Source: a virus
Lineage: Duplodnaviria; Caudoviricetes
Reading direction: 5' to 3' (one strand)
DNA: 64,000 bases
IMG/VR virus record: IMGVR_UViG_3300010163_000003
Coordinates: 96,001 to 160,000 of that record
The stretch's first letter is position 1. Each line of letters starts with the position of its first letter. Of this stretch, positions 3,409 to 53,846 are shown in pieces. Both the position numbers and the translations under genes were made by a program. The notes under the pieces are model-generated. The model saw nothing but the letters and a program-made list of their open reading frames with translations. It made no database searches and was not told the DNA's origin.

Positions 3409-3903
3409 TTAAATAATAACATTATGAGAACCATATTCATAGTTCTCCTCAAAAACAGGGGTTACATAAATAGTACAATCATCCTCCAATACATATGATC
3501 GTTTAATTACATCTTGAAAATAAGTCATTTCCGCTTTTACTGTAGAATCATATGTAATTATAGCTTTATCTAAAGTAATAAGCTTACTTATGCGATTAAA
3601 ACTATAATGCATTGTACTTTGTAACACACCATTAAGATATATTTTAAATTTATGATCGGTATCTAAGTAAGCATCGTCTGGCAGTTTCCACGTTCCATCT
3701 TCGTTATATGGCAATATAATAGTTTTTTGTACAGGAGAAGGAACAGAAGGATTATCAAAGACTTCTAAAGTTTCATATCGTATACCACTAGTATAAGTAG
3801 AATCTTTAAATGCAGCTTGTATTTTGTATTGCTTAACATGCTTATCTTTAATTCTTCTAAATGTAATATTTTTAGTAATCAATCCTGGCAGGAATTCAGC
3901 CAT
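3409..3903 (-). CDS. Hypothetical structural protein (164 aa), small beta-sandwich
   Basis: GGAG RBS. FKIYLNGVLQ..HY motif shared with other virion proteins in the window. Confidence 0.5.
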   Translation of the reverse strand: MAEFLPGLITKNITFRRIKDKHVKQYKIQAAFKDSTYTSGIRYETLEVFDNPSVPSPVQKTIILPYNEDGTWKLPDDAYLDTDHKFKIYLNGVLQSTMHYSFNRISKLITLDKAIITYDSTVKAEMTYFQDVIKRSYVLEDDCTIYVTPVFEENYEYGSHNVII

Positions 3904-32686: not shown

Positions 32687-35600
32687 TTATTGAGCTAATT
32701 CTGCAAATTTGTTTGCTAACCAATTATCATTTACTCCACTATTGTCAATATAAGAATACATAGAAGTTGAGCCACCGCCAGCTTTATTTATTATAGCTCC
32801 ATTATTTTGCGCATTAATATCCATTTGGGTTTTTGCTCTAATATTAAAAGACAATCCACTGTGTGTATCTTGATATATTACATTTCTACTTTTAGGCGTT
32901 GAAGGAACTTGTTTACCATTAATGTTGGGTTGATTATATAAACCAGATTCTTGGGGCTGTAATGGAGTCTTGTCTTGATCTTTATGCATAACGTTAGTTA
33001 ACAATCCCAATGCAACTAAAGAACCAGCAGCCATACCTACATGTTTTTTTGATATATCTAAATCAGATAAAGTATCATCAAAAAACTGTGACAAAGTCCT
33101 TCTTTTTAATGGATTGTTTGCATTGTTATTATTTAATATTTTAATAATTTCTCTATCACTTAAAACTTTGTTTTTATTTAAATATGATATAATGCTGTCT
33201 GTTTGTGCCTTTAAGCTTTCAACTCTATGACTAATAGACTCTGACATACCAGAAAGAGATAATGCATCTGAAGCTTTAAATACATGTCCACTAGCTTTAT
33301 ATTCTTCTAATTTTTTAAGAGTAGTCTCCACAGAGAATTTAATCTTATCGCTAGGTTTTTTACCAAGCATTTTCGATGCTTCTTCTAAAACATAATCATA
33401 ATCTTTTGAATTAAGATTACTAAATTTAGTCCCCATAAATGATCCAAAGCCTACACGCATTTCATCAAAAGACCCATTAAAATTAAATAAAGAAGCTGCA
33501 TCGTCTGATTTGACAAGCATACTAAATATTTTATCTTGAGCTTGTTTTATAGAGTTTAAACGCTCATTTTCCATAATGTCTATCAAAGAACCTGGGGTTC
33601 CTTTAGGACCCAAGTCTGTATATTTATGTGAAAGCATTTCTTTTAATGTATCAAGCTGTTCAGTTGGAGCATTAGGTTTAGCCTGAATTTTCTTTATATA
33701 TTGCTCTAAAATATCATATTGACCTTGAAGTCTTTTTGCCTCACTAGGTATATCATAAACGTTTTTGCGGAGTTTTTCAATACTTTCGTAATAATTTTGA
33801 AAATCGAAGTTACCAAGAGCGTTGACTTTATTATAATGATGTTGCATATTAGCACTAGAGTCAACGTTTAACACTTCTTGTTCAATGGTTTGTTTAAATA
33901 TTTCATTAAGAGTGCCTAAAGATTTAATTGCGTCTTTATCGTTGAAATTAATTTTTCGTCCATTATTTGCTATATTTTTATTGACACTGCGTAATAATTC
34001 TACTGCTGGATCTAAGCCACGTTGTCCAGCATCTATCATATATTGCGCACGCCAAGATTCATACGCATTACCAAGTTTTTTAGTTTCATCAAACGTAGTT
34101 ATTATTGCACTTAATGCCTTATTTGGATCAGTATCTGTAATACCTAATATTTGTTGAAGTACGCTTGTCATTGGAGCTGAGCTACCTGCTTCTCCATAAA
34201 ACTGGCCAAGATTAGATATTCTACCATATTTGTTCTTAGATATGCCAGTAGCTCTTAATATTGATTTTTCAAATGTTCCTGTAAATTCTGGAGTATTAGT
34301 ATTTTTATTTATTTTTGCCGTTCTTATCTTGGATGTACCATTACTTTCATAAAGTATAGCGTCATCAAGCATGCCAGTTAATTTAACCTCTGCCGCATCT
34401 TTTTGTATATTAACTCTAAGCTCTGGATCAATATGAAGATTACCTATATAATAAGGAGAAGAGCCTTTAGAAGAATCATGGGTTATTTGTTTAAAGAATT
34501 TTTCTTCAAAAGTAGCATTAGGACTATGCAAGTCTATTACTTCGCCTTTTAATTGTACGCCTTTATCGTTAATATTTACTCTATTAAATTTCCCATTTCC
34601 AGTATAAGCATAGTAATTAATTTCTGCGTTATTTTTACCTAATTGTCCAGTATATGTGTATAATGTATTGACATCAAATGGATCTCTTAATGCATTTACT
34701 TTTGTCATTAAATATTCTGCCATGTCAGTATCAATAGCGCTGACAAGTTTCTTTACATCTTTAGGGTTTAATGATTTAAGGTTGTTTATCATATCTTCTA
34801 ACCCAAAAAGATCTCTACGCTTCATTACTGTATTCCATACTTCAGTTAATTCTGGAACTTCAATTTTAGCTTTGTTCATTAAATGAAAAGAACGAAGATA
34901 TTCTAACAAAGCGGTATCGTCTTGAGTAAATACTTTACCATTAAGAGTAACTGTTTCTATTACGCCTTGTAAGTTAGATTGTTTAAGAATCCTTAAAGCA
35001 TCATCTATTTGATTTAATGTTACGCCAGGCCCTATATGAGGAATTCCATTTTTACTAAATCCATTGACTTTCCTTAAGGAATCGCCCATTATAAAGTTAT
35101 CGACATAAGTTTCTATTTCATTGTCATTTATTTTTAATACTTTAGAGCCAATGGAATCAACCATTCCAATCATATGTAATCTTTGAGCTTGGACATCATT
35201 AGTCTCTAAAAACCCATAAGCATGTTCACTAAAGCGTCTAATTTTTGATAAATCTAAACTATCTCTAGCATGTTTTGGGTCAACGGCTGTTTGTTCTGTT
35301 ACACTAAACAAACCACCATCTCCACTAAGCATGTTTGAAAAACTAATTAATGACTCATTCATAAGTTTAGTTTGTTCGCCAGTTAAATTCTTTAAGCTCA
35401 TAGTTTGATAGAATGTTTCTTTAATGCGATACATAGGAGTTGAAACATGCCCAATTAAATTTTTTCTTAACCTTGCTACAGTCGCAGATACTAATTGAGC
35501 TTCATTCAATAATGTGTTACCTACAGAAGACTTAAAGAATGAATCTACCTCATTAGAATGTAAAGCTGCTTCAAAAATGCCAGAAAATTTTTTATCTTTT

Positions 35601-38600
35601 TGGTTACTTAATATATCTTCAACTTTATATGTGCCACCATTAAGATGTATACGATTATCACTTGACTGGCTTGCTAAATTATTAAGATATTCTTTTATAG
35701 AATTTTGATATTCTTTACTATCAATAATCTCTAATAATTTAGATTTTTGTTTGTTAACTGCGCTTGGATCGTTAAACAAAAACGGATTGCCTTCTTTAAT
35801 TGCTTCACTTAATAAGATTGGAGCTTCTCTAGTGATAAATCTTTCATATCTAGTTTTTTGTAAATTAAATAACTTAGAATTAGATTTTAATATACTGGCG
35901 CCATCAGCGATTGTACTTACAAATACTTTATCTCCATCAAAATCTAAGTGAGTTAAGTATGACAATATAGGATTGGATACGTTTACTTGATTCCCTGATA
36001 GATGTTCTCCTAAAGCAAGTCTAACAATTGGCTGACTACGAAATGACGGGAAACGTAAAAACTCAGCAAAAATACCTACTTCACTAAAGAATTGTTGAGC
36101 TATGCCACTTTGTTTAAAAAGTTTAAGATTACTTCCAAGTAAGCCTTCAGCATTTTTAAACTGTCCTTCAAGAATTTCATCATACTGTTTTAATGCTTTC
36201 TCTGCGCTATCTATACTATCTTGCATTGCTGCTCGTATTTGTTTATATGCATCTCTATCTTTAACACTGGCATTTACTTTTTCTATTCCTTCTAGGACAT
36301 GTATTTGTTCTCGTGATTTGTCTAATGTTCTTTGAGCTTTCTTTTTACCTTCTTGAATTACTCCCATATAGTTATCAAGAGTACTTATTAAATTACCTTG
36401 GCCTTTAATTTCTAATTTATCTATAGTTTGATAATATGTTTTACTATCAACTTTAGCCATTTTCTTAATCGCACTATCAATATCTTTATCAGTACCTGAT
36501 TCAAGAAGAGTATGTATATCTTCTAACGTTTTATTGTTTAATCCTGCAATTCTATTAGACTGGAAACTAATTGACTTAAGATGATCTGGAGGTTTTGTGT
36601 TATCATTAAATGCTTGAATTAAATCATTATATGATTTTTGGAATCTACTACTTTGAACAAGATCACTCATGCCTTCAATAGTATATTTTCCATCTTTCAT
36701 ATGTTTCTCGTAATCATTGATTATATCTGCTGCTACAATACTAAAATCGTATCCTTGACGCTCTAAAGCTTGTTGACTTACTTGAACGACAAGACCGTTA
36801 TATTCTACTCCATTAATAGTTGTTCTAGCAAGTTTTTTTAAAGAGTCACTAACGTTATCTGGCAATATTAATTTTGCAGCATTACTAGAATTAGTAAGAA
36901 CTTCTTTACTAGAAGCCTTTATTGCGGCATCAAAATCATTCTTCGCTTGAGTTAATTCCTCAATAATGCTCATATCATATGGATTATCACGAAGTTGAGC
37001 ATATAATCCTTTTTGCGTACTAGTTCCACGTAATTTTTCATATGCTTTTCTAACGTTGCTATTTTTAGCAATTTGTTCTTCTAATAACGGAGAGAATTCA
37101 CTTTGTCCTAAATACTCAGAAGAATTAGGCATTACAAAACTCTGAAAAGCTTTATAAATATCAGTATCTTTTTTCATAAAATCTGTTTGTCTGTAAAGTT
37201 CTTTAACCATGGTGCTATATATCTTGCCGATTCTTTCATTCATTACTTCTCGTATTATTTTTGGATCATCATTTCCAATAGTGTTACCAAGAGAATTAAC
37301 CAAAAATTTACCAGGATTTTTTCTTAATTCATCAATTTCTTTTAATCTTTGATTTACAATACCTATGCTTTTTTGAAACAAAAACTTTTCGTTTTCTTGA
37401 ATAGTGGTAACTCCGTGTATTGGAATAAGTAATCCTTCTAATTCTGTGCCATTTACTTTTGGCTTAATAACATGAACATCTGGATTATTGTCTAAAGCAA
37501 CAAATATGTTAAAGCTATCATTATTTAGATCTACACCTTGTTCTCTAGCTTTTTTAAGTAAGAATTCGCTTGGTTTACCATCTATAAAAAACATTGTGTT
37601 ATCTAGGTCTTTTACCCTATCATAACCAGTGCGCATTCTTTCCCCATTGCCTTCAACTATTTCATCTAAAGTTAAAGTAAGTATATTAGACTTTTTTATA
37701 TCTTCTAATGTATATTTGCCTTCTAAGAATTCTTTAGAATATTTTGTTCCAACAATGCCACGTCTTAATTCTTGATGTGGATTATTTTGACGAGCACGTT
37801 CATAGTTTAAATCCATCGCATAGTCGTTGAGTTCTTTACCAAGATATTTAAGTTCTTTTAAAGATTTTGTTTCACCATGAGTACGCCCATACTCTAATGC
37901 TTCTTTTTTTAGTAATTGCATGTACTCTACATCTTTTGGATCTATTCCATGAACAGTATCATTATAACCAAATGGGTCTTTAAATAGTCCACGGAAAATT
38001 ATGCCTTGCTCAGCACGTTTATCCATAACAAAATATTTGCCCATATGATCATTCATAATTTGTCTACGGAAAGTAAACCAGTCTGACATAGTTGCTTCTA
38101 GATCATCAAGTTCATTTATAATAGATTGACTAATCGAATTTCCATTTTTAGTTGCATCTTCTCTAAGCAAATCTTTAAGCTTAAGATCAAATGACGATGG
38201 ATCAGGCATTTCTGCCATTGTTACATAAAGACGTTTATTGTCAGCAGAAGCTTGAAAAGATATATTTGGCGTTTTACCATTAATAGGGTCAAATTGGTGC
38301 GTATCTTTAGCTGCTTGATTCATTAAATCAACTAAATGATCTACTTGTCCAGCTTTAGAATATCTATCAGTTGCCAAATCAAATATTGCTTGTGCATGCA
38401 TTATTCCGCCATGTTTGCTGAAATTAGGATTGCCAACAAATATAGCGCCATCAAACATTTCGCCAAATAATGTAGAAAGTAATGTATTTGCTTGTTGCTT
38501 ATTATAAACATTGCTACCCTGGTTTATAATTGAATAAATATCTTCTGGTCTGATTGAGTGTACAGTGGCTTTTTCAAGACCATTTATTGTTATCTTTTGA

Positions 38601-41600
38601 TCAACAATATCTCCTACATAAGTTTCTAGTCTAGTTTTCCCTATTCCATTATCTATGCCAGACAATAATTGATCTACATTTTCCTGAGTTAATATAGATT
38701 TAGGTTTATTAAAGAATATACGAGAACCATCATTTCTAAATCCAATAACAGTATTTGTATCTATATCTTTACCAACTAGATTATTTAATAATTCAGTGGT
38801 TCTTTGTATATCTGCTTTGCTCCAGTTTAATTCAAGCTTAACTGCATCTGGTTTTGTGAAGAAATCAAATTGTTGTATAAATGGATTAGCAAACATTTTA
38901 TCTTCATAAAGAGAATTATAATGAGCTTGAAACACTTTTATTAATTCCCTTGTTTGCTTAGAATCTACACTAACTCCAGTTTGAGATAATTTTTTAGCTA
39001 ATGAATCTATTGCTGCATTATCAGACAGTATGTCATTGTACTTAATTTGCAAGTCAGCATCATTAATAAATTTGAATCTAGCCATAAATTCATGTTCATC
39101 TAATGTTATTTTGCCATTAGTACTAGCTTCGAGACTGTCTTTAATTCCTTTCTCTAAATGAGTCATAGCGTTATTTCCAAAAGATATAGCGCTATAACCT
39201 TTTTCAGTGAGACCTTTAGCCATATTAGGGGCATTAACGTTATTTGATAACTGTGATAATACACTAGATACTTGATTTATGTCATATGTAACAGGATTTC
39301 CTTGCTGTACATATAACGGACGCATTATATTGTATAAGCCAGAATGTGTCTGAAAATCACCAAACATACGTGAATAATATATACCACGCTCTAAGGCGCT
39401 TTCAGAACCTATAGGATTAAGTCCAGAAGTTTTATTAACATTTACAACTCGTGATACCGCATCTACAGCAAAATCACTAATCATAGAATCTTTACGAATT
39501 CTATCATCATGTATAAGGTCATTAATAATATTGAGAAAATTTTTAGAATCTCCAGTATCAAAGAAGTCTTCATAACCAGCATTTTTAAAATTAATTCTTA
39601 ATTGATCAGCCCAAGATACACCATTTGCTTGCCAGTCTTCACTTAATACAGTACCAATCAGCATACGCCTATGGAAAAACTCATGAAATTCTTGACTGTT
39701 CAATATTTCACGGTAAGAATATAATGAATTAACATCTCCAAGCCCTACATGTTCTGCAAATGTTTTAACAATAAGTTGTGCAGGATTTAGCTCAGCAGAA
39801 ATAGCATTAGGATTTTTAAATGAACCTAGGGTTAACTGTTCAAATATATCACGTAGTCCTTTATGATAACTATATCCAAAAGCATTCATTATACTATTAG
39901 GATTAAGATGTACGTTACGGCTTACTCCACTAATAGAATTATCTGAAGCTAATCCTCCAAGGTAGTCAGTAAGAATTCTACGCATTCTACGGCTACCTTC
40001 TCCATAATTACCATCTAAGGCTAATTCTTCTGCATTAGCAAGTCCCTTACGAAATATGGACAATACGGCAGTAGAACCATCACCTTCACTAACTTGGAGA
40101 ATTCCGTTTTTGTCAAGATAAGTATCCAATGAACGGGCATGTAAGTACTTAGGATAGTTATCTCCTTGATTAATGAAACGTAAAGATTCAACAGATGCAA
40201 GCCCAGAATTGTTTGAACGTATATCAAATTCTCTAACCCTTGGTAGTTCTACTACGGTAGCGTATTTACTAATATCACTATCCATTACATTCTTATAAGA
40301 AGATGTAATATTTTTAAATTCATCGTCTGTAAGATTATCTATAAAAGAAGCAAGTTTATGAGAATCACCTGTCTTGGTAAGAAGCATATATCCACTTTTA
40401 CCTTCGTGTTTAGCAACATTAAGATTTGAATAAGGAGTAATGATTAATGCTTGTAGTCCTTTTCCTTTTTTAGAATTTAAACTATATTTTTTACTGTCAA
40501 GAAGTATATCATTAAGTAATTTTGTTTTAGCAGCTATATCTTCACTAGTGCCATAATTCATTCCTAAAGCTTCTAGCAATGAACGTTCAAAAGTTTCATA
40601 TTGTAAGTCGGTAGCGGCAGACGTAATATATCTATATGGAGTATAATTATCAAATACTTCTTTTATTGCATCATTTACTTTTTTGGCTTGTGTAGGATTT
40701 GAATTTAAATTATTGAAAAAGTCTCTTAGGCTACTATCTTTATATTTAAGAAATGGAGCATCAATATCATAGTTATCATGACCTATACTATGCAATATAC
40801 GTTTTTGTACATCTTCATCGGACATGCTCGATGTTATAGAATCAGCAAGTATACTTCCCGGAGTATTTTTCAGCTTCCATATTTCAGTAGCTATCTCTGT
40901 AGATAAACCAAAAGTATAAGAACTTTTTTGTTTAGCATTAAGAGGAAGAAGAGAATCTAGTGTTTTGATATATTTACTAGCATCTTTAATAATTCCTCTA
41001 TCTTGTAAATTATTTAATCCATTGATAATTGTATTGTTGTCTTTAGCTTCATCTAAGAAATTTTTTATTCCTTGTTCTATTGTCTTTTCGCTATGATCGT
41101 TTATTCTTTTGAAAGCCCCATTGTCAGAAATAATGTCAAAATCATAAAGGTCTGAATATGAGAAACGCCCTCTATCTTTAAAATATTCAAAAGCTCCACT
41201 ATTATCAAGTTCAATATTCTCGCTCTCTAATACTTTAGCTAAAGCTTTGCGTATTTTAGAAAATAAGACTGTCTGTTCTCTATTGAGTTCTGGAGAATTT
41301 ATACCAGATAAAGGTTGTGATGGATCATAAGGGGAGTTCTTAAAATAATCATTAACTGCTTTAAATATTACATCATGCACAGGAGATTCATTATCTAAAA
41401 TTCTCTTATAGGACAAAAAAGCCTGCATTTCATATGGAGTGTTAATTAATCCATTTTTGAGAGCATTACTTGATCTTCTTGAAGTACCAAAAGTTTGTTC
41501 AATAAAACTTTTTAAATCTCTATATCTTGCATCATAATCAGTAAGAGGATTTATAGAAGCAAGATGATTATTATAAGCTTCATTGAACTTCCTTATCTCT

Positions 41601-43453
41601 GCTAATTTTTGATAGCCATTAGCACCAATTTGTCTTTTAAGAGTATTATCATATTCCATGCGAACTTCTGATGGATCAAAAAGTCTTGCAATTTCTCTTC
41701 TACCAGAATCCAGAGAATCATTTTCTCTAATAGTTTGAATGAAATTTTGAGTTAATGAACTTTCGTCATATATGTCTGCTCCATTAATAATACGGTGCAA
41801 TCTTTCAAATACCTCTTCTTGAGTATCCCCAACAAGATACATTACATCTGCATCTGCACCCTGAGCATAATTCCGTAAAGCAATAGAATATCTTGTTACG
41901 TTCTGGCCATCTATATTTTGAGTAAACGTTTTAGTTTGAGAAGTGTCAACTTTCCAAAAATTATTCTTAATCGAATAAGAGTTAGTTCCAAAGTCATCTC
42001 CAGCTTGTACAACAAATTCTTTAGCTTCTTCTTTCTGTAAAGCTCCTGAGCGAAGATAGAATACTGTATTATCTAAATCTCCATAAGTTAATTGTTTAGT
42101 ATAAGGCTCTTTCTTTAAGGCTTCCAGCGCGTTACTATTATTAGAAAATAGAATAACGTCATTGTCAATCAATAACCCTTGGTTATTGATATCACTTATA
42201 GCAATATGAGCTTGGTGTTCTTGGAGTCCTAATGCTTCAAGCCTTTCGTTTATAGATACACCAACTCGTTTACCATATAATAATTCATTTAATTCTAATG
42301 GACTTAAATGTTGAGCTTCTGCAACAGCACGAACAATATGAATGTTATCTAATATTTTACTTTGAGCAATTTTAAGCTTCTTGATTAATATCTCTTTTTC
42401 TTGAAGAGTTTTGGATGATTGTTTTACGTATGCTATTAACCTATTAACATCGAATTCACTATTCGCTGCGTTTAAAAAATTAGTGTCGGTAGGATTGTCT
42501 ACAATTTTGTCAATAACAAGTGAAATAAAATCATCAGCAGCATTAGAGAATCCATTTTTCGAGTCTAATATTGCATTACTTGCTTGTTCAAAATTACGCC
42601 AACCGCTGAGAGCTTCAGCATAATTTATATTTGTTGGCTTACCCTTTTTTACTACTTTGTATTTATGTTTTTGTCCAAATAAATCAACTTCAACATCAGT
42701 AAAAACATCAGTATAATTACCAGCATAAACAGCAGCACGCTCCATAGAAATTCTTTCAGATTCGCTTAAGCTATCCCAGCCATATTTCCTAAATTTCTCT
42801 AGCGTATCCATCATAAATTTCTTTTGTGGAGCACTTGTCATAGGAACAACAAATGATTGTCCTCTGGGGTCTGGAACGCTGTGTAATTTTCTATCGTATC
42901 TTCTTAAATTAACGCCTAACTCTGTAATAGTTGAAGTACCATCGGCAATATCGCCTAATGTTTCTGTATCGAATCCCCATAAAGAAATATTCTTATATAA
43001 GCCATTATCTCCTTTATCTATAACAGCTTTGGCAAATGCTTGCCATCTATCATGAGCACCCAATACTTGATCTACAGACTTCTGATTAATATAAGTAGCC
43101 ATTTTTAAATAGTCTGTAGGGTCAAATGATGAAGTATTAAAATTTACTCCAGTATTAAGAATAGCTTGTGGAGTTTGATCAAGAAGTTCTCTTTGCAAAT
43201 TCCAAGCTTGATTCCTATAATTAGAACGTAATATTTTTCTAGCAGTTTCTTCAGTATCAGCTTGACCTGAATTTATCAAATTACTAATTTCATTTAATAC
43301 ATTTTGATCTGTTGTACTAGATGATTTTCTAATAGCGTAAGTTTCTGGATCTAATCTGCTTCCATCATATTCTACAGTAAATTTATTTGCATTATTATAT
43401 TGTGACCAAACATCTGGTAATCTATAATGAAATGCATATATTTCATCTCTCAT
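32687..43453 (-). CDS. Giant single-chain two-barrel DNA-dependent RNA polymerase with N-terminal DEDDh exonuclease (3588 aa); probable virion RNAP
   Basis: beta'-like RFP (aa 2467) and HLDFDGD (D2504-D2508). beta-like YED (1516-1518) and DQKITINGLEK (K1620/K1628). Exonuclease motifs FDTET, NSEFD and HIAISD. Confidence 0.8.
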   Translation of the reverse strand: MRDEIYAFHYRLPDVWSQYNNANKFTVEYDGSRLDPETYAIRKSSSTTDQNVLNEISNLINSGQADTEETARKILRSNYRNQAWNLQRELLDQTPQAILNTGVNFNTSSFDPTDYLKMATYINQKSVDQVLGAHDRWQAFAKAVIDKGDNGLYKNISLWGFDTETLGDIADGTSTITELGVNLRRYDRKLHSVPDPRGQSFVVPMTSAPQKKFMMDTLEKFRKYGWDSLSESERISMERAAVYAGNYTDVFTDVEVDLFGQKHKYKVVKKGKPTNINYAEALSGWRNFEQASNAILDSKNGFSNAADDFISLVIDKIVDNPTDTNFLNAANSEFDVNRLIAYVKQSSKTLQEKEILIKKLKIAQSKILDNIHIVRAVAEAQHLSPLELNELLYGKRVGVSINERLEALGLQEHQAHIAISDINNQGLLIDNDVILFSNNSNALEALKKEPYTKQLTYGDLDNTVFYLRSGALQKEEAKEFVVQAGDDFGTNSYSIKNNFWKVDTSQTKTFTQNIDGQNVTRYSIALRNYAQGADADVMYLVGDTQEEVFERLHRIINGADIYDESSLTQNFIQTIRENDSLDSGRREIARLFDPSEVRMEYDNTLKRQIGANGYQKLAEIRKFNEAYNNHLASINPLTDYDARYRDLKSFIEQTFGTSRRSSNALKNGLINTPYEMQAFLSYKRILDNESPVHDVIFKAVNDYFKNSPYDPSQPLSGINSPELNREQTVLFSKIRKALAKVLESENIELDNSGAFEYFKDRGRFSYSDLYDFDIISDNGAFKRINDHSEKTIEQGIKNFLDEAKDNNTIINGLNNLQDRGIIKDASKYIKTLDSLLPLNAKQKSSYTFGLSTEIATEIWKLKNTPGSILADSITSSMSDEDVQKRILHSIGHDNYDIDAPFLKYKDSSLRDFFNNLNSNPTQAKKVNDAIKEVFDNYTPYRYITSAATDLQYETFERSLLEALGMNYGTSEDIAAKTKLLNDILLDSKKYSLNSKKGKGLQALIITPYSNLNVAKHEGKSGYMLLTKTGDSHKLASFIDNLTDDEFKNITSSYKNVMDSDISKYATVVELPRVREFDIRSNNSGLASVESLRFINQGDNYPKYLHARSLDTYLDKNGILQVSEGDGSTAVLSIFRKGLANAEELALDGNYGEGSRRMRRILTDYLGGLASDNSISGVSRNVHLNPNSIMNAFGYSYHKGLRDIFEQLTLGSFKNPNAISAELNPAQLIVKTFAEHVGLGDVNSLYSYREILNSQEFHEFFHRRMLIGTVLSEDWQANGVSWADQLRINFKNAGYEDFFDTGDSKNFLNIINDLIHDDRIRKDSMISDFAVDAVSRVVNVNKTSGLNPIGSESALERGIYYSRMFGDFQTHSGLYNIMRPLYVQQGNPVTYDINQVSSVLSQLSNNVNAPNMAKGLTEKGYSAISFGNNAMTHLEKGIKDSLEASTNGKITLDEHEFMARFKFINDADLQIKYNDILSDNAAIDSLAKKLSQTGVSVDSKQTRELIKVFQAHYNSLYEDKMFANPFIQQFDFFTKPDAVKLELNWSKADIQRTTELLNNLVGKDIDTNTVIGFRNDGSRIFFNKPKSILTQENVDQLLSGIDNGIGKTRLETYVGDIVDQKITINGLEKATVHSIRPEDIYSIINQGSNVYNKQQANTLLSTLFGEMFDGAIFVGNPNFSKHGGIMHAQAIFDLATDRYSKAGQVDHLVDLMNQAAKDTHQFDPINGKTPNISFQASADNKRLYVTMAEMPDPSSFDLKLKDLLREDATKNGNSISQSIINELDDLEATMSDWFTFRRQIMNDHMGKYFVMDKRAEQGIIFRGLFKDPFGYNDTVHGIDPKDVEYMQLLKKEALEYGRTHGETKSLKELKYLGKELNDYAMDLNYERARQNNPHQELRRGIVGTKYSKEFLEGKYTLEDIKKSNILTLTLDEIVEGNGERMRTGYDRVKDLDNTMFFIDGKPSEFLLKKAREQGVDLNNDSFNIFVALDNNPDVHVIKPKVNGTELEGLLIPIHGVTTIQENEKFLFQKSIGIVNQRLKEIDELRKNPGKFLVNSLGNTIGNDDPKIIREVMNERIGKIYSTMVKELYRQTDFMKKDTDIYKAFQSFVMPNSSEYLGQSEFSPLLEEQIAKNSNVRKAYEKLRGTSTQKGLYAQLRDNPYDMSIIEELTQAKNDFDAAIKASSKEVLTNSSNAAKLILPDNVSDSLKKLARTTINGVEYNGLVVQVSQQALERQGYDFSIVAADIINDYEKHMKDGKYTIEGMSDLVQSSRFQKSYNDLIQAFNDNTKPPDHLKSISFQSNRIAGLNNKTLEDIHTLLESGTDKDIDSAIKKMAKVDSKTYYQTIDKLEIKGQGNLISTLDNYMGVIQEGKKKAQRTLDKSREQIHVLEGIEKVNASVKDRDAYKQIRAAMQDSIDSAEKALKQYDEILEGQFKNAEGLLGSNLKLFKQSGIAQQFFSEVGIFAEFLRFPSFRSQPIVRLALGEHLSGNQVNVSNPILSYLTHLDFDGDKVFVSTIADGASILKSNSKLFNLQKTRYERFITREAPILLSEAIKEGNPFLFNDPSAVNKQKSKLLEIIDSKEYQNSIKEYLNNLASQSSDNRIHLNGGTYKVEDILSNQKDKKFSGIFEAALHSNEVDSFFKSSVGNTLLNEAQLVSATVARLRKNLIGHVSTPMYRIKETFYQTMSLKNLTGEQTKLMNESLISFSNMLSGDGGLFSVTEQTAVDPKHARDSLDLSKIRRFSEHAYGFLETNDVQAQRLHMIGMVDSIGSKVLKINDNEIETYVDNFIMGDSLRKVNGFSKNGIPHIGPGVTLNQIDDALRILKQSNLQGVIETVTLNGKVFTQDDTALLEYLRSFHLMNKAKIEVPELTEVWNTVMKRRDLFGLEDMINNLKSLNPKDVKKLVSAIDTDMAEYLMTKVNALRDPFDVNTLYTYTGQLGKNNAEINYYAYTGNGKFNRVNINDKGVQLKGEVIDLHSPNATFEEKFFKQITHDSSKGSSPYYIGNLHIDPELRVNIQKDAAEVKLTGMLDDAILYESNGTSKIRTAKINKNTNTPEFTGTFEKSILRATGISKNKYGRISNLGQFYGEAGSSAPMTSVLQQILGITDTDPNKALSAIITTFDETKKLGNAYESWRAQYMIDAGQRGLDPAVELLRSVNKNIANNGRKINFNDKDAIKSLGTLNEIFKQTIEQEVLNVDSSANMQHHYNKVNALGNFDFQNYYESIEKLRKNVYDIPSEAKRLQGQYDILEQYIKKIQAKPNAPTEQLDTLKEMLSHKYTDLGPKGTPGSLIDIMENERLNSIKQAQDKIFSMLVKSDDAASLFNFNGSFDEMRVGFGSFMGTKFSNLNSKDYDYVLEEASKMLGKKPSDKIKFSVETTLKKLEEYKASGHVFKASDALSLSGMSESISHRVESLKAQTDSIISYLNKNKVLSDREIIKILNNNNANNPLKRRTLSQFFDDTLSDLDISKKHVGMAAGSLVALGLLTNVMHKDQDKTPLQPQESGLYNQPNINGKQVPSTPKSRNVIYQDTHSGLSFNIRAKTQMDINAQNNGAIINKAGGGSTSMYSYIDNSGVNDNWLANKFAELAQ

Positions 43454-43462
43454 TTATATCAC

Positions 43463-46400
43463 CTATATATTCATATTTCCTATACGTGATTCTACATCAG
43501 ATCTTCCATCTTTGTATACTTCCATTTTAGTTTGTGTATCATTTAAAGCGCTTGTATAAGATATTTGAACATCATCATATCCGTTTTCACCAAGAATATG
43601 TTTAAGCCTTGTACGTATTTGAGCAGCATTTGTATGTTTATCTATTTTAGGAATAGGAATATTAGTCATATTAGCTTTATTTTTATTATCTTGCCATATA
43701 TCAAATTCACCGGGGTCTAATTTTTCTTTATGGACAAGTTTAACTTTAACATCATCTAAATTAGTATTTTCATCCCAACCTACCCAATTTGCATTAGGTA
43801 AGGCATGCTGAGTAAAATATTCTTGTAAACTAGGTTTTACATCTGGCTTCATTCCCCAAGTCGATTGTAATGCTCGTCTCATATAGCTTGGAGCAACACG
43901 AAGTATTTTATCTTTTTCTTCTTCTGGAGCATTCATGAAATGCTTAAAATATTGTCTATCCTTTTTAGGTAATGCAGACATAATATCTACCATTGATTTT
44001 CCTGGCTCATATCCATACATGGTTTTATCGGCTGCATTTTTATATTGAATAGCTTTCATAGCATTTAATGGAACCTTGACAGTTTTTCTATCACTTTGTA
44101 TTTCTTTGATTTCTTGATTTACTGCTTTAATGATTCCTTCTCTTCCCATATTTGGTTTCATATATTTTGGTTTACCATATTGAAAATCGAATTTATCACT
44201 ATGTTTAAAATCCATTTTAACTTGCCGCTTATATGCTTCAAGCTCTTGCTTTCTTATTTTATTATAAGCACCATGTGATTCTGTGCTATTCATATATTGG
44301 CGAACATCGAAATGATCTTCCGCCATAGACTTGTCTGCATATTGATTAAATAAACGCATGTTTTTTACATACTTTAAAGTATCAACGTATTCGTTTACTT
44401 TTTCTTGTTGTACTCTTCTGTTTGGTCTCCAATCTCTTTCTTTAGTAGAACCAGCAGAAAAAGCAATCTGGCCTATTGTTGGGATAGCTCCTCCAACAAA
44501 TCCTCCCATTATTGCACCAAAATTATTTCTACCAAATAATCTACCTATAAATGTACCAGTAACTATGCCAAGTAATCCGTTTGCAATTGGTTTATCAACC
44601 ATGTTAGGCATAAATAAGTCTCTAATTGGATGATCCCAGCTTTGAAAGTCTTTCCCATATACTTCTCTATCTCTATATTGTTCATATGGAGAACGTACTT
44701 GATAAATTTTGCTACCTATAAATGGGATATTTCCAATAATACTATGGGCAGTTGTTTCCATTGCAGAACCAAATGCGATTTCTCCTTTGCTATATCTCGC
44801 ATGAATACCAGCAGGAGAATCATCGTTTTCATTTTCTTTAGCATGACCTTTATTAAGCAATATTTGATTTACATTTCTTCCTCCAGAAATAACAACAGAA
44901 CGTATAGAGTCAGTAGAATCGCCAGAAAACTTATTAGCAGAATCTGCATCGTATTGGATAGTAATTCTTCCACCTTTATGTATATGCTTTTTAATTTCAT
45001 CGTAAGCCGCTTCACGTTTCGTTGGCCCCTTTTCTAATTCTTTACGGATATTATGAATTATTTTTTCAGCGCCTTTACGTCGTTTGCGCGGATATTCTTT
45101 TTTGTTAACTAAGTCACTAGATTCTGTTACAGTAATACCAGCAAACTTAATAGCATGCTGCGCACCATATTCTTTAGTGACAATAGTATTGTTGTCTAAT
45201 ATTTTGTCTACAGTTACAACTTCACTAACAAGATTCGATGTTTTAAATTTATAAGGATATACACGAAGAGGTTCTTTCTGCTGAGTTATTCTTTTGCGAA
45301 TTTGTTGAACTTCTTTTTTTTCTTCATCAGTTAATTGTTCACGAGATAACTTAGCAGTAGCTTGTTTAAACTCATCAGAATAGGGTGCTACATCCGCTAG
45401 AATGCGATATTGATCAAGAGGACTATATAAGTCACCTCTACCTATTACGCCTTTTTCTATGCCCTTTCTGATGTCAGCACGAGCGTCATTAAGATTCTTT
45501 AAAGTATCGCGAAGTAATTTATCGTCATATTTAAACCCAACAGTATATGAGTCCGTAGGATTTTCTTTGTCTACATAATGAATATATCCTTTAGACTCTG
45601 TATTGCCAGTTGCCCATAAATAATAATTTACTTGACGCTTATGATAGTCTAATGGTCTGCCACTTTTTCGGAGTTCTTTAAGCTTCTTTGCAGACGTTGT
45701 TTTAATATCAACTATACCAACACCAGTGGGTGAACTCATGTCATATACAGCAGCGTCAAAATATCCAAGTATGCCATTACGTTCATCTTTTATTTCGCCT
45801 TCCGTTTTAAAAGCTATACCTTGTTCTTTCCAAGCAGCTTCTATTTGTCTATGCAGTTTAGTTCCTTTATTAAGAGTATCTTCTTGGAATTGAGTATTAA
45901 CAAAATCTTGATGCAACAAATGACGTATAATATGTTCTTTATCGTACCCAATAGATGAAGATCCTGTACGCATATCTAAAACATTATTAATGCCATACAT
46001 GCGTTCATACCCTTCTCCAGGCAAACGTTCTTCGCCATTAGCGATTTTAGTATATGGATCTCCATGTTTAAAATCTGTAAAATAGTTACTACCAGGCATC
46101 CAATCTGGCATTGTGTTTCTTATTGGATTAATATATTCAGTTGTAGTATTGCGTTTAGGCATAAAACGACGAGATATTTCTGACAGGCTTCCACCGAGAC
46201 CGCCCATGTTTTCATCCCAAAAAGAACGACGAGCGCTATATGCCCAACCAGAATCTTCTATAGTTCGAGCATCGACATTATGTTTACCAGTAATAAGAGA
46301 TTGTGTTATAAACCCTTTTAAACCTGCTACATCTGCTAACCAGTTTAGTTCTTCTTTACTATTATACATAAAAGCATTGTCTATTGCTTTAGAATCATTG

Positions 46401-49400
46401 CCAACAGGTATATCAGGATTTAAATTAGGAGTTAATTCTACTCTGTCTTTAGCACCAATAATTTTTTTAATACTATATTCTTTTAAGTCTTTATTTACTT
46501 CCCACAAGTTCATATCATTTGGTATATCAACTACACTTAATTTACCAGAAGGAGTAGAATATATCTCATATGGTGGAACAGAATCGTCATGACCAGATAT
46601 GCTATAGCCATATGGACTAGGTAGCGTGTCAGGCGTATAAGGTTTAGGTTTATAAGATTGAGCTTTTGGAAATGCAGAATAAAGAGCATCTGTAACAGAA
46701 TTTGAAGGCATTTTTTGAATAATGTCTCTAACGTCAAATGTAACACCATTAGAATTAGTAGTTTTGTATTTAACAATTTTTTGAGCTTGATAAATAGAAG
46801 CATCCATCGCTTGAGTATAAGCTGCTTGATTTGCTGTTAATTCTTTTTGCAATTCTACAAAACTATTAATATTTTCTTGTGCTTGAGCCATAAATTTTTT
46901 ACGATTTAATTCAAGTTTTCCTGTTGTAAGTATAGGATTGGGTTGCTCGTCTGCTGGATTAACATTTATTTGACCTTGATACTCCATATGCATCATTTGA
47001 GGAGGAGAAATAATAGTTCCTATAGTAGATGCAAATATAGGTCCTATAAACGGAATATCATTGCCAATTGGAGCAGTTTTAAGATATGGTCTATCCTGAA
47101 GATGTTTATAATCATAATGATGTTTGTCGAAAATAAAATAGTTTAATGGAGCCAATGGATTAAAGATATTCGGATACCAAGTATGATTATAATATTCTTT
47201 ACGAGAACCCCACTTAGTATCACTAAAATCAACATCAGCTTCAATACGACGATATAAGTTTGGTCTCCAGTATTCTATTTTCCCTCCAGTAAACGGAGTA
47301 TTACCTGCTCCCCACCAGCGTCCTTTACGGATAGGATCAAAGCCATTTTCAATATACTCTTTACGTTCTTCTTTGGTTTGTCCTAAACCCATTTGATGTA
47401 TCAATGGTAATTCCGTTATTTGTTCAGTGCCAGGAATCATGTCTTGCATAAATTTCACAAGTTTAGTAGCTCCAGTAATATCCATCATGTTATGAGCTTG
47501 AATATCTAATGGCTTTACAACTTTTCGCATTAAAAACTTTGTTATATTGTCTTGTTTGCCAGTATTAGTTTCATCATCCTTTCTAAAAAATGGTTCACTA
47601 AGATAGTTAATCATATCAGGAACCTGTGTAAGCATATATATCGGTAATGCACGTTTAGCTATTAAATTTCCAGCATAAGACCCTACGCTATGTTTTGCTT
47701 GAGTACTAAATCCGAAAAGATATACACTGTTAGCTAACTGATTATTTAATGCATCAAATAATCCCCAAGTTCTAGTAGTCCGCTCTGTAAAATATTTGCC
47801 AGCCATGCCATTTCTGTCGAATCCAGAACCAAATTGTCCAACAAATTTTATTAAATTTTCAAAAGCATCGACAGGTCTTTTGTCCATTAGATCTGTTACT
47901 ACAGTTCCGAGCTTATACCCTTCTTTAGTAACATTAAAAGTATGCGGGGTATACTTTATATTGTTTTTAATATATTCACCAAATCCATTGCCAAGAACGT
48001 CACTATGATCATATTTTTGAGCAGCTTGCAACATCTCATTAACCGAGTCATATTCAAATCCATTCACTCTAATTTTTCTTGTCATTCTATCTATAAACCT
48101 ATCAGTAGTTTCATCTATTGCAGTTGCGCTATCAAAACTTCTGGTAATATCTTTCGCTTCTGTTTGCCATTCTTCAAATCCCATGTCTAATACTTTTGCT
48201 GTTCTGTATCTAAGTTTTTCTGAAGCTGTTAATTTTCTACCAAGACGTTTTTCGTAATCCGTTATGCTTTCTTTGATAGGTTCTCCATATGACAATCCAG
48301 CCATTTCTCTCATAGCATTAATTTGATGAGTGCCATATCCATAACGAGTCATGTTAGTGGTGTCATACAAATGAAGGTTTTCCGCTATTTTCATTAACCT
48401 TCCATCAGTAGTAGTAGTGTAAGCAGAACCATTAATGACAGCTACAGATTTATTTGCATATTCATCTCCAAGATTTTCTGCTAACCATTCTCCTATTGTA
48501 TATCTACCACCACGTTCAGTAAGAAATGGACTAATTTGCTCGCTACTTAACAAGCCAGCAAAAGGCTCTTTGTATCCGAGCTTATTCAAACCAAGATAAT
48601 TAAATCCACTTTTTAAAGGATTAAATTTAACAACAGGTAATCCAAAATCTTCAGCAAGAGAATTAATAAATCCATATAAATCTTGTTTGGGCATACGATA
48701 ATCTATAAACTTACCAACTTCATCTATGCGAATATCTGAATCTAAGGTTAAATTTTTCCATGCTCCTCTAGAATACATTGTTTGAACATGACCAAATTCA
48801 TCTGTATATTTATGATTAAGATTACCCATAAAATTATTAATGCTATCTAGGAAAGAATGTCCCATTTGGTCTTTCGCTTTGTCTAAATCAATAACAGCAT
48901 TACTTTTTACTTGTAATCTTTTAATGCCATTAGAGTCAATTACTTCTTCTAAAATATCTCCAAGAACCAATTGGCGATATCCTGTTGTACGCAATTGTTC
49001 TCTTGCTTTTTCAGCGGTTAAACTTCTTAATTCCAAAAATTCTTCCATCATTTTTTGAGTATATATAGAAGCTTGATCTGGATGATATTCGGTAGCAGTA
49101 AATTCAACTTCTTGTAGGCGTTGCATAAATTTCTTAAGGTCAGTATCAAAATAAGAATATCTTCTTTCTGTAGAACGAGAAAGTCCGTCTTCTATTATAC
49201 TATGCATAACTTTTAAATCGTCTTCAGTATCTTGTAATATACGCTTCATGCGATTAAAGTGAGACATAGAAGAAGAACCAGTCAAGTCTGATATATCTTG
49301 AAATAAATCAAAAGCAACACTACTTGAACGCTTATGAAATAAGCTATGTTCTGGAATATTCCAACTACGACCAGATTTTGCAAGAGCTGAAGAATCTATA

Positions 49401-49684
49401 TGTTCAGAATTAGCCCACTTTTTTATGCTAGACATAACAACGCTAGCTTTATCTAACCCTTGTTCAGAAATAACATCGCCAAGTTCTAGCATAGGTTTAA
49501 TTATTCCCTTTAAAAGGCCAGATTTATATGTACCGTAACCAGCTATAGCAATTAAACCCATTTTTACGGCATTCAGTAATACACTGGCATCGTTCACGTT
49601 TTGTGGGTCATTAACGGTCGCATTATCTTTATCGTTATAATTCCCTGTTAGCGTTCTTTGCTGCAATCTGTTGTCTGATGGCAT
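43463..49684 (-). CDS. Tape-measure-position / ejection protein (2073 aa) with PD-(D/E)xK (Cas4-like) nuclease, thermonuclease-like domain and membrane segments
   Basis: GTKLHRQIE...EGEI...GYFDA...IVDIKT...QVNYY. SNase-like VDKILDNNT..IKFAGI...NVNQILLNKGHA. Gly-rich hydrophobic helices. GGAGGT RBS. Follows the tail chaperones. Confidence 0.7.
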   Translation of the reverse strand: MPSDNRLQQRTLTGNYNDKDNATVNDPQNVNDASVLLNAVKMGLIAIAGYGTYKSGLLKGIIKPMLELGDVISEQGLDKASVVMSSIKKWANSEHIDSSALAKSGRSWNIPEHSLFHKRSSSVAFDLFQDISDLTGSSSMSHFNRMKRILQDTEDDLKVMHSIIEDGLSRSTERRYSYFDTDLKKFMQRLQEVEFTATEYHPDQASIYTQKMMEEFLELRSLTAEKAREQLRTTGYRQLVLGDILEEVIDSNGIKRLQVKSNAVIDLDKAKDQMGHSFLDSINNFMGNLNHKYTDEFGHVQTMYSRGAWKNLTLDSDIRIDEVGKFIDYRMPKQDLYGFINSLAEDFGLPVVKFNPLKSGFNYLGLNKLGYKEPFAGLLSSEQISPFLTERGGRYTIGEWLAENLGDEYANKSVAVINGSAYTTTTDGRLMKIAENLHLYDTTNMTRYGYGTHQINAMREMAGLSYGEPIKESITDYEKRLGRKLTASEKLRYRTAKVLDMGFEEWQTEAKDITRSFDSATAIDETTDRFIDRMTRKIRVNGFEYDSVNEMLQAAQKYDHSDVLGNGFGEYIKNNIKYTPHTFNVTKEGYKLGTVVTDLMDKRPVDAFENLIKFVGQFGSGFDRNGMAGKYFTERTTRTWGLFDALNNQLANSVYLFGFSTQAKHSVGSYAGNLIAKRALPIYMLTQVPDMINYLSEPFFRKDDETNTGKQDNITKFLMRKVVKPLDIQAHNMMDITGATKLVKFMQDMIPGTEQITELPLIHQMGLGQTKEERKEYIENGFDPIRKGRWWGAGNTPFTGGKIEYWRPNLYRRIEADVDFSDTKWGSRKEYYNHTWYPNIFNPLAPLNYFIFDKHHYDYKHLQDRPYLKTAPIGNDIPFIGPIFASTIGTIISPPQMMHMEYQGQINVNPADEQPNPILTTGKLELNRKKFMAQAQENINSFVELQKELTANQAAYTQAMDASIYQAQKIVKYKTTNSNGVTFDVRDIIQKMPSNSVTDALYSAFPKAQSYKPKPYTPDTLPSPYGYSISGHDDSVPPYEIYSTPSGKLSVVDIPNDMNLWEVNKDLKEYSIKKIIGAKDRVELTPNLNPDIPVGNDSKAIDNAFMYNSKEELNWLADVAGLKGFITQSLITGKHNVDARTIEDSGWAYSARRSFWDENMGGLGGSLSEISRRFMPKRNTTTEYINPIRNTMPDWMPGSNYFTDFKHGDPYTKIANGEERLPGEGYERMYGINNVLDMRTGSSSIGYDKEHIIRHLLHQDFVNTQFQEDTLNKGTKLHRQIEAAWKEQGIAFKTEGEIKDERNGILGYFDAAVYDMSSPTGVGIVDIKTTSAKKLKELRKSGRPLDYHKRQVNYYLWATGNTESKGYIHYVDKENPTDSYTVGFKYDDKLLRDTLKNLNDARADIRKGIEKGVIGRGDLYSPLDQYRILADVAPYSDEFKQATAKLSREQLTDEEKKEVQQIRKRITQQKEPLRVYPYKFKTSNLVSEVVTVDKILDNNTIVTKEYGAQHAIKFAGITVTESSDLVNKKEYPRKRRKGAEKIIHNIRKELEKGPTKREAAYDEIKKHIHKGGRITIQYDADSANKFSGDSTDSIRSVVISGGRNVNQILLNKGHAKENENDDSPAGIHARYSKGEIAFGSAMETTAHSIIGNIPFIGSKIYQVRSPYEQYRDREVYGKDFQSWDHPIRDLFMPNMVDKPIANGLLGIVTGTFIGRLFGRNNFGAIMGGFVGGAIPTIGQIAFSAGSTKERDWRPNRRVQQEKVNEYVDTLKYVKNMRLFNQYADKSMAEDHFDVRQYMNSTESHGAYNKIRKQELEAYKRQVKMDFKHSDKFDFQYGKPKYMKPNMGREGIIKAVNQEIKEIQSDRKTVKVPLNAMKAIQYKNAADKTMYGYEPGKSMVDIMSALPKKDRQYFKHFMNAPEEEKDKILRVAPSYMRRALQSTWGMKPDVKPSLQEYFTQHALPNANWVGWDENTNLDDVKVKLVHKEKLDPGEFDIWQDNKNKANMTNIPIPKIDKHTNAAQIRTRLKHILGENGYDDVQISYTSALNDTQTKMEVYKDGRSDVESRIGNMNI

Positions 49685-52953: not shown

Positions 52954-52988
52954 TTTATTGCCCCCTACTAGAAAAACATTTATGTCAT

Positions 52989-53834
52989 TTATTGAGTATA
53001 AGAATAATCTGGGCAAATCCATCCGTCTATTTCAACTTCAGGGTCGTCATTAAATACATGAACCCAAGTATGACCATTTGAATCTACTGTAGACTCTTTT
53101 TGTGTAACAGTTGCAATATTAACAATAGAATATAATTTTTGAGTATTTTCTCCAGGTCCAGAATAAACAATAGTATTAACAGGAAGATTAAAAGTAGCAT
53201 TAGTATATAAATGCTTTAAATATAATGCATCTATAGCCTTTCTAGTTTCTGTTCCTAATTCTCCATATTCTGAGCTTAAATCTTTGTAGTATTTTGTCTT
53301 ATATTCATTTTGAAATCTCATTAGTAAATTTTTGAGATTGTACTCAGCTTCATTATTGGGAGTATATCCAATAGTATGTAACTTATTTCTATATGTATTT
53401 TCAAGATCTGTAAGAGATTGCGTATTATCTGATTTAGATTGAGCATTTGGTTTGGAGTTATTAACCCAATCGATGTTATCTTTTAATGCTTGTTGAGTTT
53501 CATTATATTGTTCATTTGATTCCGTTTGAGATGATTTAAATATATCTGAATTTCCAAATACGGTTTGTTGTTCTGGATTTTTAATTGGCATTTTAAAAGC
53601 ACCAGTTACAACCCTATTACCAACAGCAACATCATCCCATGTACGAGAAGCATATCCATAAATAGGCTTAAGTTGCTCTTGTACTGAATAATTAATATAC
53701 CCTATTTCTGTTTGCTCTTCATCATTAAAATATATCTTTGTATCTGTACTTGAATAATATTCCTCTATGAAGAAATTCGGTTGTCGTGGTTCTTCAGGTG
53801 GGATATATTTATATGTCATAGAAGCTTCAGACAT
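52989..53834 (-). CDS. N-terminal half of a tail-tube-like fold + PG-binding-like + SH3-like domain (281 aa)
   Basis: YYSSTDTKIYFN...INYSVQEQLKPIYGYAS...VAVGNRVVTG aligns with the tube N-half. C-terminal VYSGPG...TWVHV...GWI resembles SH3b. Confidence 0.65.
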   Translation of the reverse strand: MSEASMTYKYIPPEEPRQPNFFIEEYYSSTDTKIYFNDEEQTEIGYINYSVQEQLKPIYGYASRTWDDVAVGNRVVTGAFKMPIKNPEQQTVFGNSDIFKSSQTESNEQYNETQQALKDNIDWVNNSKPNAQSKSDNTQSLTDLENTYRNKLHTIGYTPNNEAEYNLKNLLMRFQNEYKTKYYKDLSSEYGELGTETRKAIDALYLKHLYTNATFNLPVNTIVYSGPGENTQKLYSIVNIATVTQKESTVDSNGHTWVHVFNDDPEVEIDGWICPDYSYTQ

Positions 53835-53846
53835 ATATACACCTTC

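Follow-up and report, generated by a model that had tools for sequence, protein, structure and literature searches.

The stretch of viral DNA analysed here (the window) is 64,000 nucleotides (nt) long and comprises bases 96001-160000 of a 218,431-bp IMG/VR virus record, IMGVR_UViG_3300010163_000003; coordinates are those of the window unless C1, the whole record, is given. Its GC content is about 32%, and all of its large genes lie on the minus strand. One of these, P0001, is an uninterrupted open reading frame (ORF) of 3588 amino acids (aa). From the N- to the C-terminus, its product is made up of a leader, a DEDDh exonuclease, about 1100 aa without assignment, the core of a two-barrel RNA polymerase and, last, a C-terminal part. 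Compared as a whole protein, P0001 has no significant family in Pfam or PHROGs. We hold with high confidence that it encodes an intact DEDDh exonuclease fused to a two-barrel polymerase. The ribosome-binding site of P0001 overlaps the stop codon of the preceding gene, which indicates that the two genes are tightly coupled. The gene and the features of its nuclease part are as follows.

32687-43453, minus strand: whole gene P0001, 3588 aa, uninterrupted ORF
43459-43464, minus strand: ribosome-binding site AGGTGA, 5 nt before the P0001 ATG, seen in the sequence
42119-43051, minus strand: DEDDh (DnaQ/RNase T-like) 3'-5' exonuclease domain, aa 135-445, as predicted with AlphaFold2, VIA and Foldseek
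42959-42973, minus strand: ExoI motif FDTET (D162, E164), aa 161-165, with invariant D and E; aligns with FDLETTG of a TREX-like nuclease
42464-42958, minus strand: segment between ExoI and ExoII, aa 166-330, described from the secondary structure of the model and from aligned lengths
42449-42463, minus strand: ExoII motif NSEFD (N331, D335), aa 331-335; aligns with HNS-FD of RNase T and TREX-like enzymes
42329-42355, minus strand: ILDNIHIVR element, aa 367-375, with D369 invariant and R375 near-invariant
42191-42208, minus strand: ExoIII motif HIAISD (H416-x4-D421), aa 416-421, with invariant H and D; aligns with the H-x4-D of RNase T

The exonuclease domain

An earlier note on this DNA had proposed an intact DEDDh domain with D162 and E164 in ExoI, D335 in ExoII, the ILDNIHIVR element and H416-x4-D421 in ExoIII, and all of these were found at the positions it gave. 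The ILDNIHIVR element is the counterpart of the xDTLxLxR element in DnaQ-like enzymes, and a conserved ITE (I176-E178) lies downstream of ExoI in the protein. The motifs fall inside the span that the note had assigned to the domain (42160-42985); the folded domain is slightly wider, extending over aa 135-445 (nt 42119-43051).

The active-site residues are strictly conserved. In an alignment of 25 homologues (A2), which are 22-27% identical to P0001 with a mean column identity of 30%, 14 of the 311 query positions are invariant, and D162, E164, N331, D335, D369, H416 and D421 are among them. Two further sequences, P0029 and the ORF of locus L007, came to light by way of the polymerase part, so that their selection carries no bias as to the nuclease. 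Both carry D162, E164, D335, D369, H416 and D421, and they match the hidden Markov model (HMM) of the nuclease family with E-values of 1e-75 and 6e-71, respectively. The strict retention of the active-site set at about 25% overall identity argues for nuclease activity, and, judging from these residues, the domain is probably active. It is very improbable that the domain is an inactive structural or nucleic-acid-holding module in which the fold alone has been kept. Such a module would be compatible with the large insert and the missed Pfam threshold described below, but the five catalytic residues are invariant at about 25% identity, and loss of these residues is the norm in inactivated DEDD domains.

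An AlphaFold2 model of aa 135-445, made from the family alignment, has a predicted local distance difference test score (pLDDT) of 89.1 and a predicted template modelling score (pTM) of 0.87. A Foldseek search with this model placed RNase T first (E 3e-4). In structural alignment with VIA, the model matched E. coli ExoI (Z 13.4), 3'hExo (Z 13.3) and the proofreading subunit DnaQ epsilon (Z 13.3, 170 of 176 residues, 2.8 Å), followed by a Cas2-fused DnaQ domain, the DinG exonuclease domain, PolC, RNase T (12.1), TREX1/2 and oligoribonuclease (11.4). All 50 of the VIA matches listed are DEDDh-type exonucleases or exonuclease domains, and the predicted fold is of the RNase H-like alpha/beta type.

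The similarity in sequence is more distant. A profile of the family compared with the PDB found DEDD nucleases only, namely a TREX-like enzyme, RNase T, the PolC exonuclease and the T4 polymerase exonuclease, weakly (E 0.06-0.4) and with the catalytic motifs aligned residue for residue. Among the PHROGs the nuclease domain has no family, phmmer with aa 100-480 against the PDB returned nothing up to E 10, and four family members gave weak Pfam matches to the Rv2179c-like 3'-5' exoribonuclease family. What counts against the assignment is the score with Pfam RNase_T (PF00929), which is 14.4-15 bits (E 0.04-0.06) against a gathering cut-off of 24 bits; the match covers the ExoIII half only, and just 3 of the 25 family members give any match. 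The comparison with RNase_T and DnaQ profiles proposed in the earlier note thus came out in favour of a DEDD nuclease with the family profile and fell short with Pfam. Missing the RNase_T cut-off marks the domain as a divergent member of the DnaQ-like superfamily. Based on the predicted structure, aa 135-445 is a genuine, divergent member of this superfamily with an intact active-site set. The proposal of an intact DEDDh exonuclease is therefore upheld by motif conservation, by profile matches to DEDD nucleases only and by the predicted fold, and its acidic residues are invariant.

The segment between ExoI and ExoII contains the canonical beta2-beta3 strands and helices together with about 70-80 extra residues, which in the AlphaFold2 model form two helices, a beta-hairpin and two further helices. 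D162 and D335 are 173 residues apart; the corresponding spacing is about 90-100 residues in epsilon, RNase T and ExoI. The model aligns to these and other known DEDDh enzymes over only 170-190 of its 311 residues, which leaves about 120 additional ones, most of them located between ExoI and ExoII, in agreement with the large insert that had been claimed for this place.

The best viral structural matches to the nuclease model were two BFVD entries, A0A7R7G2L5_1 (E 1.8e-7, TMq 0.59) and A0A8S5RKK9 (E 7e-6), with match values better than those of the free exonucleases. Both are N-terminal pieces of other large viral proteins and share the insert, which suggests, at the level of predicted structures, that the insert-bearing form of the nuclease may also stand at the start of other giant phage proteins.

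The RNA polymerase core and the conserved fusion

The polymerase lies in the middle of P0001, separated from the nuclease by a long region.

35204-38776, minus strand: two-barrel RNA polymerase core as modelled, aa 1560-2750 (AlphaFold2, VIA)
38570-38596, minus strand: beta-like barrel signature KITINGLEK, K1620-x7-K1628, invariant in 22 full-length homologues
35930-36055, minus strand: beta'-like barrel signature R2467-F-P2469 ... D2504-F-D-G-D2508, with R2467, P2469, D2504, D2506, G2507 and D2508 invariant
38777-42118, minus strand: region between nuclease and polymerase, aa 446-1559, about 1100 residues, with conserved positions

In 22 full-length homologues, K1620, K1628, R2467 and P2469 are invariant or near-invariant, as is, 37 residues further on, D2504-x-D-G-D2508. 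The K1620-x7-K1628 spacing is that of bacterial beta, and the sequence around R2467...D2508 resembles the active-site barrel of beta'. The second position of DFDGD differs in four members (DNDGD, DHDGD, DVDGD and DMDGD); two of these homologues, P0004 and P0005, with DNDGD and DHDGD, respectively, retain the nuclease residues. Against the PDB, the profile of the polymerase family matches beta' best, at its NADFDGD segment (E 0.15). A candidate ED motif (YEDKMF, aa 1516-1521; E1517-D1518) varies between E and Q and between D and G across the family and is not strictly conserved. No invariant Asp was found in the family for the fourth catalytic Asp on the beta-type side (Rpb2 D837 or QDE-1 D709).

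The AlphaFold2 model of aa 1560-2750 (1191 residues) has a pLDDT of 78 and a pTM of 0.76. Foldseek matches to this model were weak (E 0.1-1, none below 0.1) and mostly with the largest subunits of RNA polymerases. When re-aligned with VIA, the core matched QDE-1 with Z 10.8 over QDE-1 residues 725-1145, i.e. both barrels. The next matches were P74-26 gp62 (Z 10.1), plant RDR2 (Z 10.0) and P23-45 gp64 (Z 9.6), then Rpb1 and beta'; both P23-45 gp64 and P74-26 gp62 are non-virion RNA polymerases. The fold matches are thus nearly all RNA polymerases, but their scores are moderate for a model of 1191 residues. The polymerase assignment is well supported, not proven. Support for the fusion to a two-barrel RNA polymerase, put forward earlier as putative, comes from the K-x7-K, R-x-P and DFDGD signatures and from the alignment of the core model over both QDE-1 barrels. 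A plain tape measure protein with a chance DFDGD was also considered and was ruled out, since R-x-P, DFDGD and K-x7-K are invariant among over 20 divergent sequences, and the predicted fold points the same way.

The two-barrel enzyme might in principle be a primer-extending or DNA-synthesising polymerase with the DEDDh domain as its proofreader. DEDDh domains are the standard proofreaders of DNA polymerases, and PolC, epsilon and exonucleases of B-family polymerases are among the matches. Archaeal PolD is an example of a two-barrel fold that makes DNA (PMC7281927). We give this explanation a very small chance: the top structural matches are RNA polymerases (QDE-1, gp64, RDR2 and Rpb1), not PolD, and the position of the gene in the tail module argues for an early, injected function.

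The region between the two enzymes (aa 446-1559) contains conserved positions D582, R585, R586, D768, D773, R1378-P1379-x3-Q1383 and K1461. It gave no family match, and the ESM Atlas gave no usable match to it.

How often the two enzymes occur together was surveyed with an exhaustive HMMER search of aa 120-470 against 1.84 billion representative proteins (E <= 0.001). This yielded 27 proteins, mostly of 3100-4200 aa and matching at about residues 90-430, as against 2-3 relatives per query in a word-indexed protein search. IMG/VR contained one further locus, L007, with an ORF of 3161 aa. Both nuclease and polymerase are present in every full-length family member (24 of 24), which answers the question of fusion frequency raised by the earlier note. 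Searches with megablast and tblastn of 50,697 phage records found no relative for the locus, the nuclease domain or aa 1900-2900, and no relative was found among GTDB representative genomes (alignment A5), so that these provide neither a prophage copy nor a host assignment. Full-text literature searches turned up neither a virion nor a two-barrel RNA polymerase that carries an exonuclease domain, and thus no DEDDh nuclease fused to the latter, in line with the earlier note, which knew of no characterised example. Within the literature and databases searched, this conserved fusion to a DEDDh domain is new.

The fusion raises the possibility that the nuclease acts on the RNA of its own polymerase, removing misincorporated or backtracked 3' ends or trimming transcripts in the manner of nsp14 ExoN. 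3'hExo (Z 13.3), RNase T (Z 12.1) and oligoribonuclease (Z 11.4) match the model as well as DNA-acting enzymes do, and the weak Pfam matches to the Rv2179c-like family in four members would fit an exoribonuclease. A covalent and universal link to a polymerase is the usual arrangement of a proofreader, and single-chain two-barrel polymerases are not known to have Gre-type cleavage factors. On the other side, about 1100 residues lie between the nuclease and the polymerase core, with no contact predicted, and short-lived early transcripts have little need of high fidelity. Moreover, no two-barrel RNA polymerase using a separate exonuclease was found in the literature searched. We consider an RNA-directed role unlikely.

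The tail module and the tape measure slot

P0001 is embedded in a tail module, whose giant proteins are listed here together with the C-terminal module of P0001 and two polymerase-like genes elsewhere in the record.

43463-49684, minus strand: upstream giant of 2073 aa, homologue of the virion protein gp145 of Bacillus jumbo myophage 0305phi8-36 (BLASTP E 7e-136)
26450-32671, minus strand: downstream hub/cell-wall hydrolase protein of 2073 aa, in the gp147 position (phrog_20474, E 2e-227)
32690-33079, minus strand: conserved C-terminal module of P0001, aa 3459-3588, the most conserved block of the family
C1:203557-208800, outside the window, plus strand: YonO-like polymerase of 1747 aa (PF05183), with DFDGD at aa 1025
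C1:1999-4080, outside the window, plus strand: 693-aa paralogue of the beta-like half of the YonO-like protein

The tail sheath protein encoded at 56808-59567 shares 36% identity with its 0305phi8-36 counterpart. After the sheath come the tube, wall-hydrolase proteins, chaperone-sized small genes, a protein of about 2000 aa, P0001 and a hub/lysin of about 2000 aa, in the order found in 0305phi8-36. The succession of sheath, tube, chaperones, gp145-like protein, P0001-type gene and hub/lysin recurs in three further contigs of about 200 kb. In 0305phi8-36, gp146 is annotated as a 'hypothetical tape measure protein' and was detected in virions (PMC2147016); gp145, gp146 and gp147 were all found in virions by mass spectrometry. 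P0001 lies between the tail chaperones and the hub and has a C-terminal hydrophobic segment, as expected of a tape measure protein. Judged by gene order and sequence, P0001 occupies the tape measure slot of 0305phi8-36-like jumbo myophages.

The C-terminal module contains one Gly/Ala-rich hydrophobic helix (approximately 3472-3489), the motifs SPL-x-P and TVYHD-x2-SGLNFKVSAKT, and the tail DNWLANKFAEL. It is a candidate hub-docking or membrane-insertion module.

The hub/hydrolase neighbour carries NLPC_P60 and lysozyme domains in loci L001 and L008. The two giants that flank P0001 are both exactly 2073 aa long, yet they are unrelated, their sole similarity being a stretch of 75 aa (E 6e-5). 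Tail-module proteins at 51340-55742 (minus strand) have Amidase_3 and PG_binding_1 domains, in keeping with a host that is Gram-positive (Firmicutes-type).

In the upstream giant, aa 1267-1410 form a Cas4-like nuclease segment (phrog_1706, E 4e-14), which, by its sequence, would give this tail module its second nuclease. This adjacency brings up a rather improbable explanation, in which the exonuclease and the neighbouring Cas4-like nuclease would together be an injected weapon against host DNA or RNA, defence nucleic acids or signalling oligonucleotides. The 0305phi8-36 homologue of the neighbour is a virion protein, and short signalling nucleotides are broken down by some DEDDh enzymes, oligoribonuclease (Orn bound to pGG) being one. 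However, the exonuclease always accompanies the polymerase, and 0305phi8-36 retains the gp145 nuclease protein with a gp146 that lacks both the polymerase and the exonuclease; a role tied to transcription is therefore indicated. Furthermore, a few molecules per virion would be a small dose for bulk degradation.

In the record as a whole, the plus strand carries the genes between about 203.5 kb and, past the origin, 68.8 kb, and the minus strand those between 69.4 and 203 kb. A scan of the whole genome with PF05183 matched two other ORFs, the YonO-like one among them, and did not match P0001. The 693-aa paralogue stops right where the DFDGD barrel would start and may be a split or truncated second copy of the YonO-like polymerase.

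Possible role of the fused nuclease and comparison with known systems

The explanation we favour, as a tentative one when its full chain of steps is considered, is that the exonuclease resects 3' ends of the entering genome and so gives the polymerase a single-stranded template. P0001 would travel in the tail and enter the cell by ejection, before the DNA or along with it, in the manner of gp96 of Thermus phage P23-45. Its C-terminal hydrophobic module would exit first and anchor at the membrane. A tape-measure-like arrangement would place the N-terminus beside the leading DNA end, and the N-terminal exonuclease, being nearest to that end in the tail, would chew back the 3'-ended strand of the entering genome. 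The single-stranded DNA (ssDNA) thereby exposed would be the form of template preferred in vitro by crAss-like gp66 and QDE-1; gp66 transcribes ssDNA and not double-stranded DNA (dsDNA), QDE-1 prefers ssDNA, and both work far better on ssDNA than on dsDNA (bioRxiv 10.1101/2020.03.07.982082). The polymerase would then make the first transcripts without host RNA polymerase, and the YonO-like polymerase (genome 203557-208800) would take over later.

This chain is favoured because the nuclease is always co-inherited with the polymerase, because a tape-measure-like N-terminus would adjoin the leading DNA end and because related polymerases want single-stranded templates. Delivery through the tail is suggested by the gene order shared with 0305phi8-36, whose gp145, gp146 and gp147 are in virions, by the resemblance of the C-terminal helix and tail to gp146, and by the precedent of P23-45 gp96. 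A coupling of the two activities is suggested by the presence of both domains in all 24 full-length relatives and by the absence of both from gp146, which holds this position in 0305phi8-36. The analysis shows the motifs and their conservation, the nuclease fold, the polymerase signatures and fold, the position of the gene and the universal fusion; that the protein is packaged and ejected, that the nuclease is active and on what substrate, and that it is coupled to transcription are inferences from these.

Several points weigh against resection. The packaging and ejection proposed here derive from synteny with a phage that is distantly related. In the fold comparison, DEDDh enzymes that act on DNA and those that act on RNA lie within about 2 Z units of each other, so that the substrate is not inferable from the fold. 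Resection of 3' ends leaves the strand that is 5'-ended at the terminus, and transcription from it would run towards the genome end. The orientation of genes near the ends is no test of this, because what the record labels a 'direct terminal repeat' is an exact overlap of 115 bp, such as circular assemblies typically show. The folded enzyme domains would be too big for the lumen of the tail tube and would have to be unfolded or stored elsewhere. Finally, P23-45 gp96 works without a nuclease, and a requirement for ssDNA is not mentioned in its description (PMC10770324).

Resection could also serve replication, if the nuclease acted on both genome ends and the terminal repeats then annealed to circularise or concatemerise the genome. 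The relative 0305phi8-36 has a linear record with a described terminal repeat (PMC2147016), and 3' resection at both termini would leave complementary 5' tails. Annealing of this kind leaves the strict co-inheritance of the nuclease with the polymerase unexplained, and 0305phi8-36 manages without the exonuclease domain; we regard this role as quite improbable.

Virion-delivered RNA polymerases free the start of phage infection from dependence on the host. The only characterised example fused to a tape measure is that of P23-45 (2024), a siphovirus; the P0001 family extends the principle to jumbo phages with contractile tails and brings in a conserved nuclease that has retained its catalytic residues despite deep divergence. 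It is possible, though doubtful, that in this clade of approximately 200-kb myophages the protein in the tape measure slot is an injected machine that both resects and transcribes, or else carries an exonuclease dedicated to proofreading, the first for a two-barrel RNA polymerase. In the former case, a processive DEDDh exonuclease would turn the incoming genome end into a single-stranded template for the attached polymerase, and transcription of dsDNA would be started without promoter melting. If the nuclease prepares the template, the access of ssDNA-preferring polymerases of the QDE-1 and crAss type to a double-stranded genome would be explained; if it edits RNA, it would represent a new form of transcriptional proofreading. 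The nuclease domain is compact (about 310 aa) and models confidently, which makes it amenable to a direct test as a recombinant fragment.

Among enzymes acting on nucleic acid ends, the nuclease resembles DnaQ epsilon, E. coli ExoI and RNase T in fold (Z 12-13.4, root-mean-square deviation 2.8-4.2 Å) and in the motifs D-x-E, N-x3-D and H-x4-D, but is only 11-17% identical to them. These three are free enzymes or polymerase subunits, whereas the P0001 nuclease is part of a 3588-aa virion-type protein. In coronaviruses, a DEDDh nuclease, nsp14 ExoN, works in the service of an enzyme that synthesises RNA, as its proofreader. It is, however, a separate protein, its partner is an unrelated right-hand RNA-dependent RNA polymerase, and it belongs to an RNA virus.

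Very large virion-delivered polymerases within bigger proteins are also known from phi14:2, a crAss-like phage (gp66), and coliphage N4. The former is a QDE-1-like two-barrel enzyme with a preference for ssDNA templates, whereas the N4 virion polymerase is T7-like and not two-barrel. Both are packaged in the capsids of podoviruses and are without a nuclease domain (for gp66, as its text describes it). The positional counterpart gp146 of 0305phi8-36 shares with P0001 the slot between gp145 and gp147 homologues and a C-terminal hydrophobic helix with a tail ending in W-L-x3-F. It differs in its length of 2537 aa and in lacking a D-x-D-x-D motif, BLAST similarity to P0001 and an N-terminal exonuclease motif, its single D-x-E-T match being at aa 1222.

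Since the gene lies in the tape measure slot, the closest known system is the tape-measure-fused virion RNA polymerase of P23-45. Its gp96 is a tape measure protein of 5002 aa with an N-terminal two-barrel virion RNA polymerase (Chaban et al. 2024, PMC10770324). Among the pre-early genes that this polymerase transcribes is that of a second, non-virion polymerase (PMC10770324). Both gp96 and P0001 are giant tail proteins in the tape measure position with a single-chain two-barrel RNA polymerase containing DFDGD, and both phages encode a second two-barrel polymerase elsewhere, which here is YonO-like. In contrast, gp96 is siphoviral, has its polymerase at the N-terminus (aa 327-1124) together with metallopeptidase and membrane domains, and has no nuclease reported; P0001 belongs to a jumbo myovirus lineage and has an N-terminal DEDDh exonuclease, with the polymerase placed mid-protein. 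No similarity between P0001 and gp96 is detectable by tblastn. A polymerase in the tape measure slot has thus been a known kind of protein since the description of P23-45 in 2024, and this leaves the novelty of the nuclease fusion unaffected.

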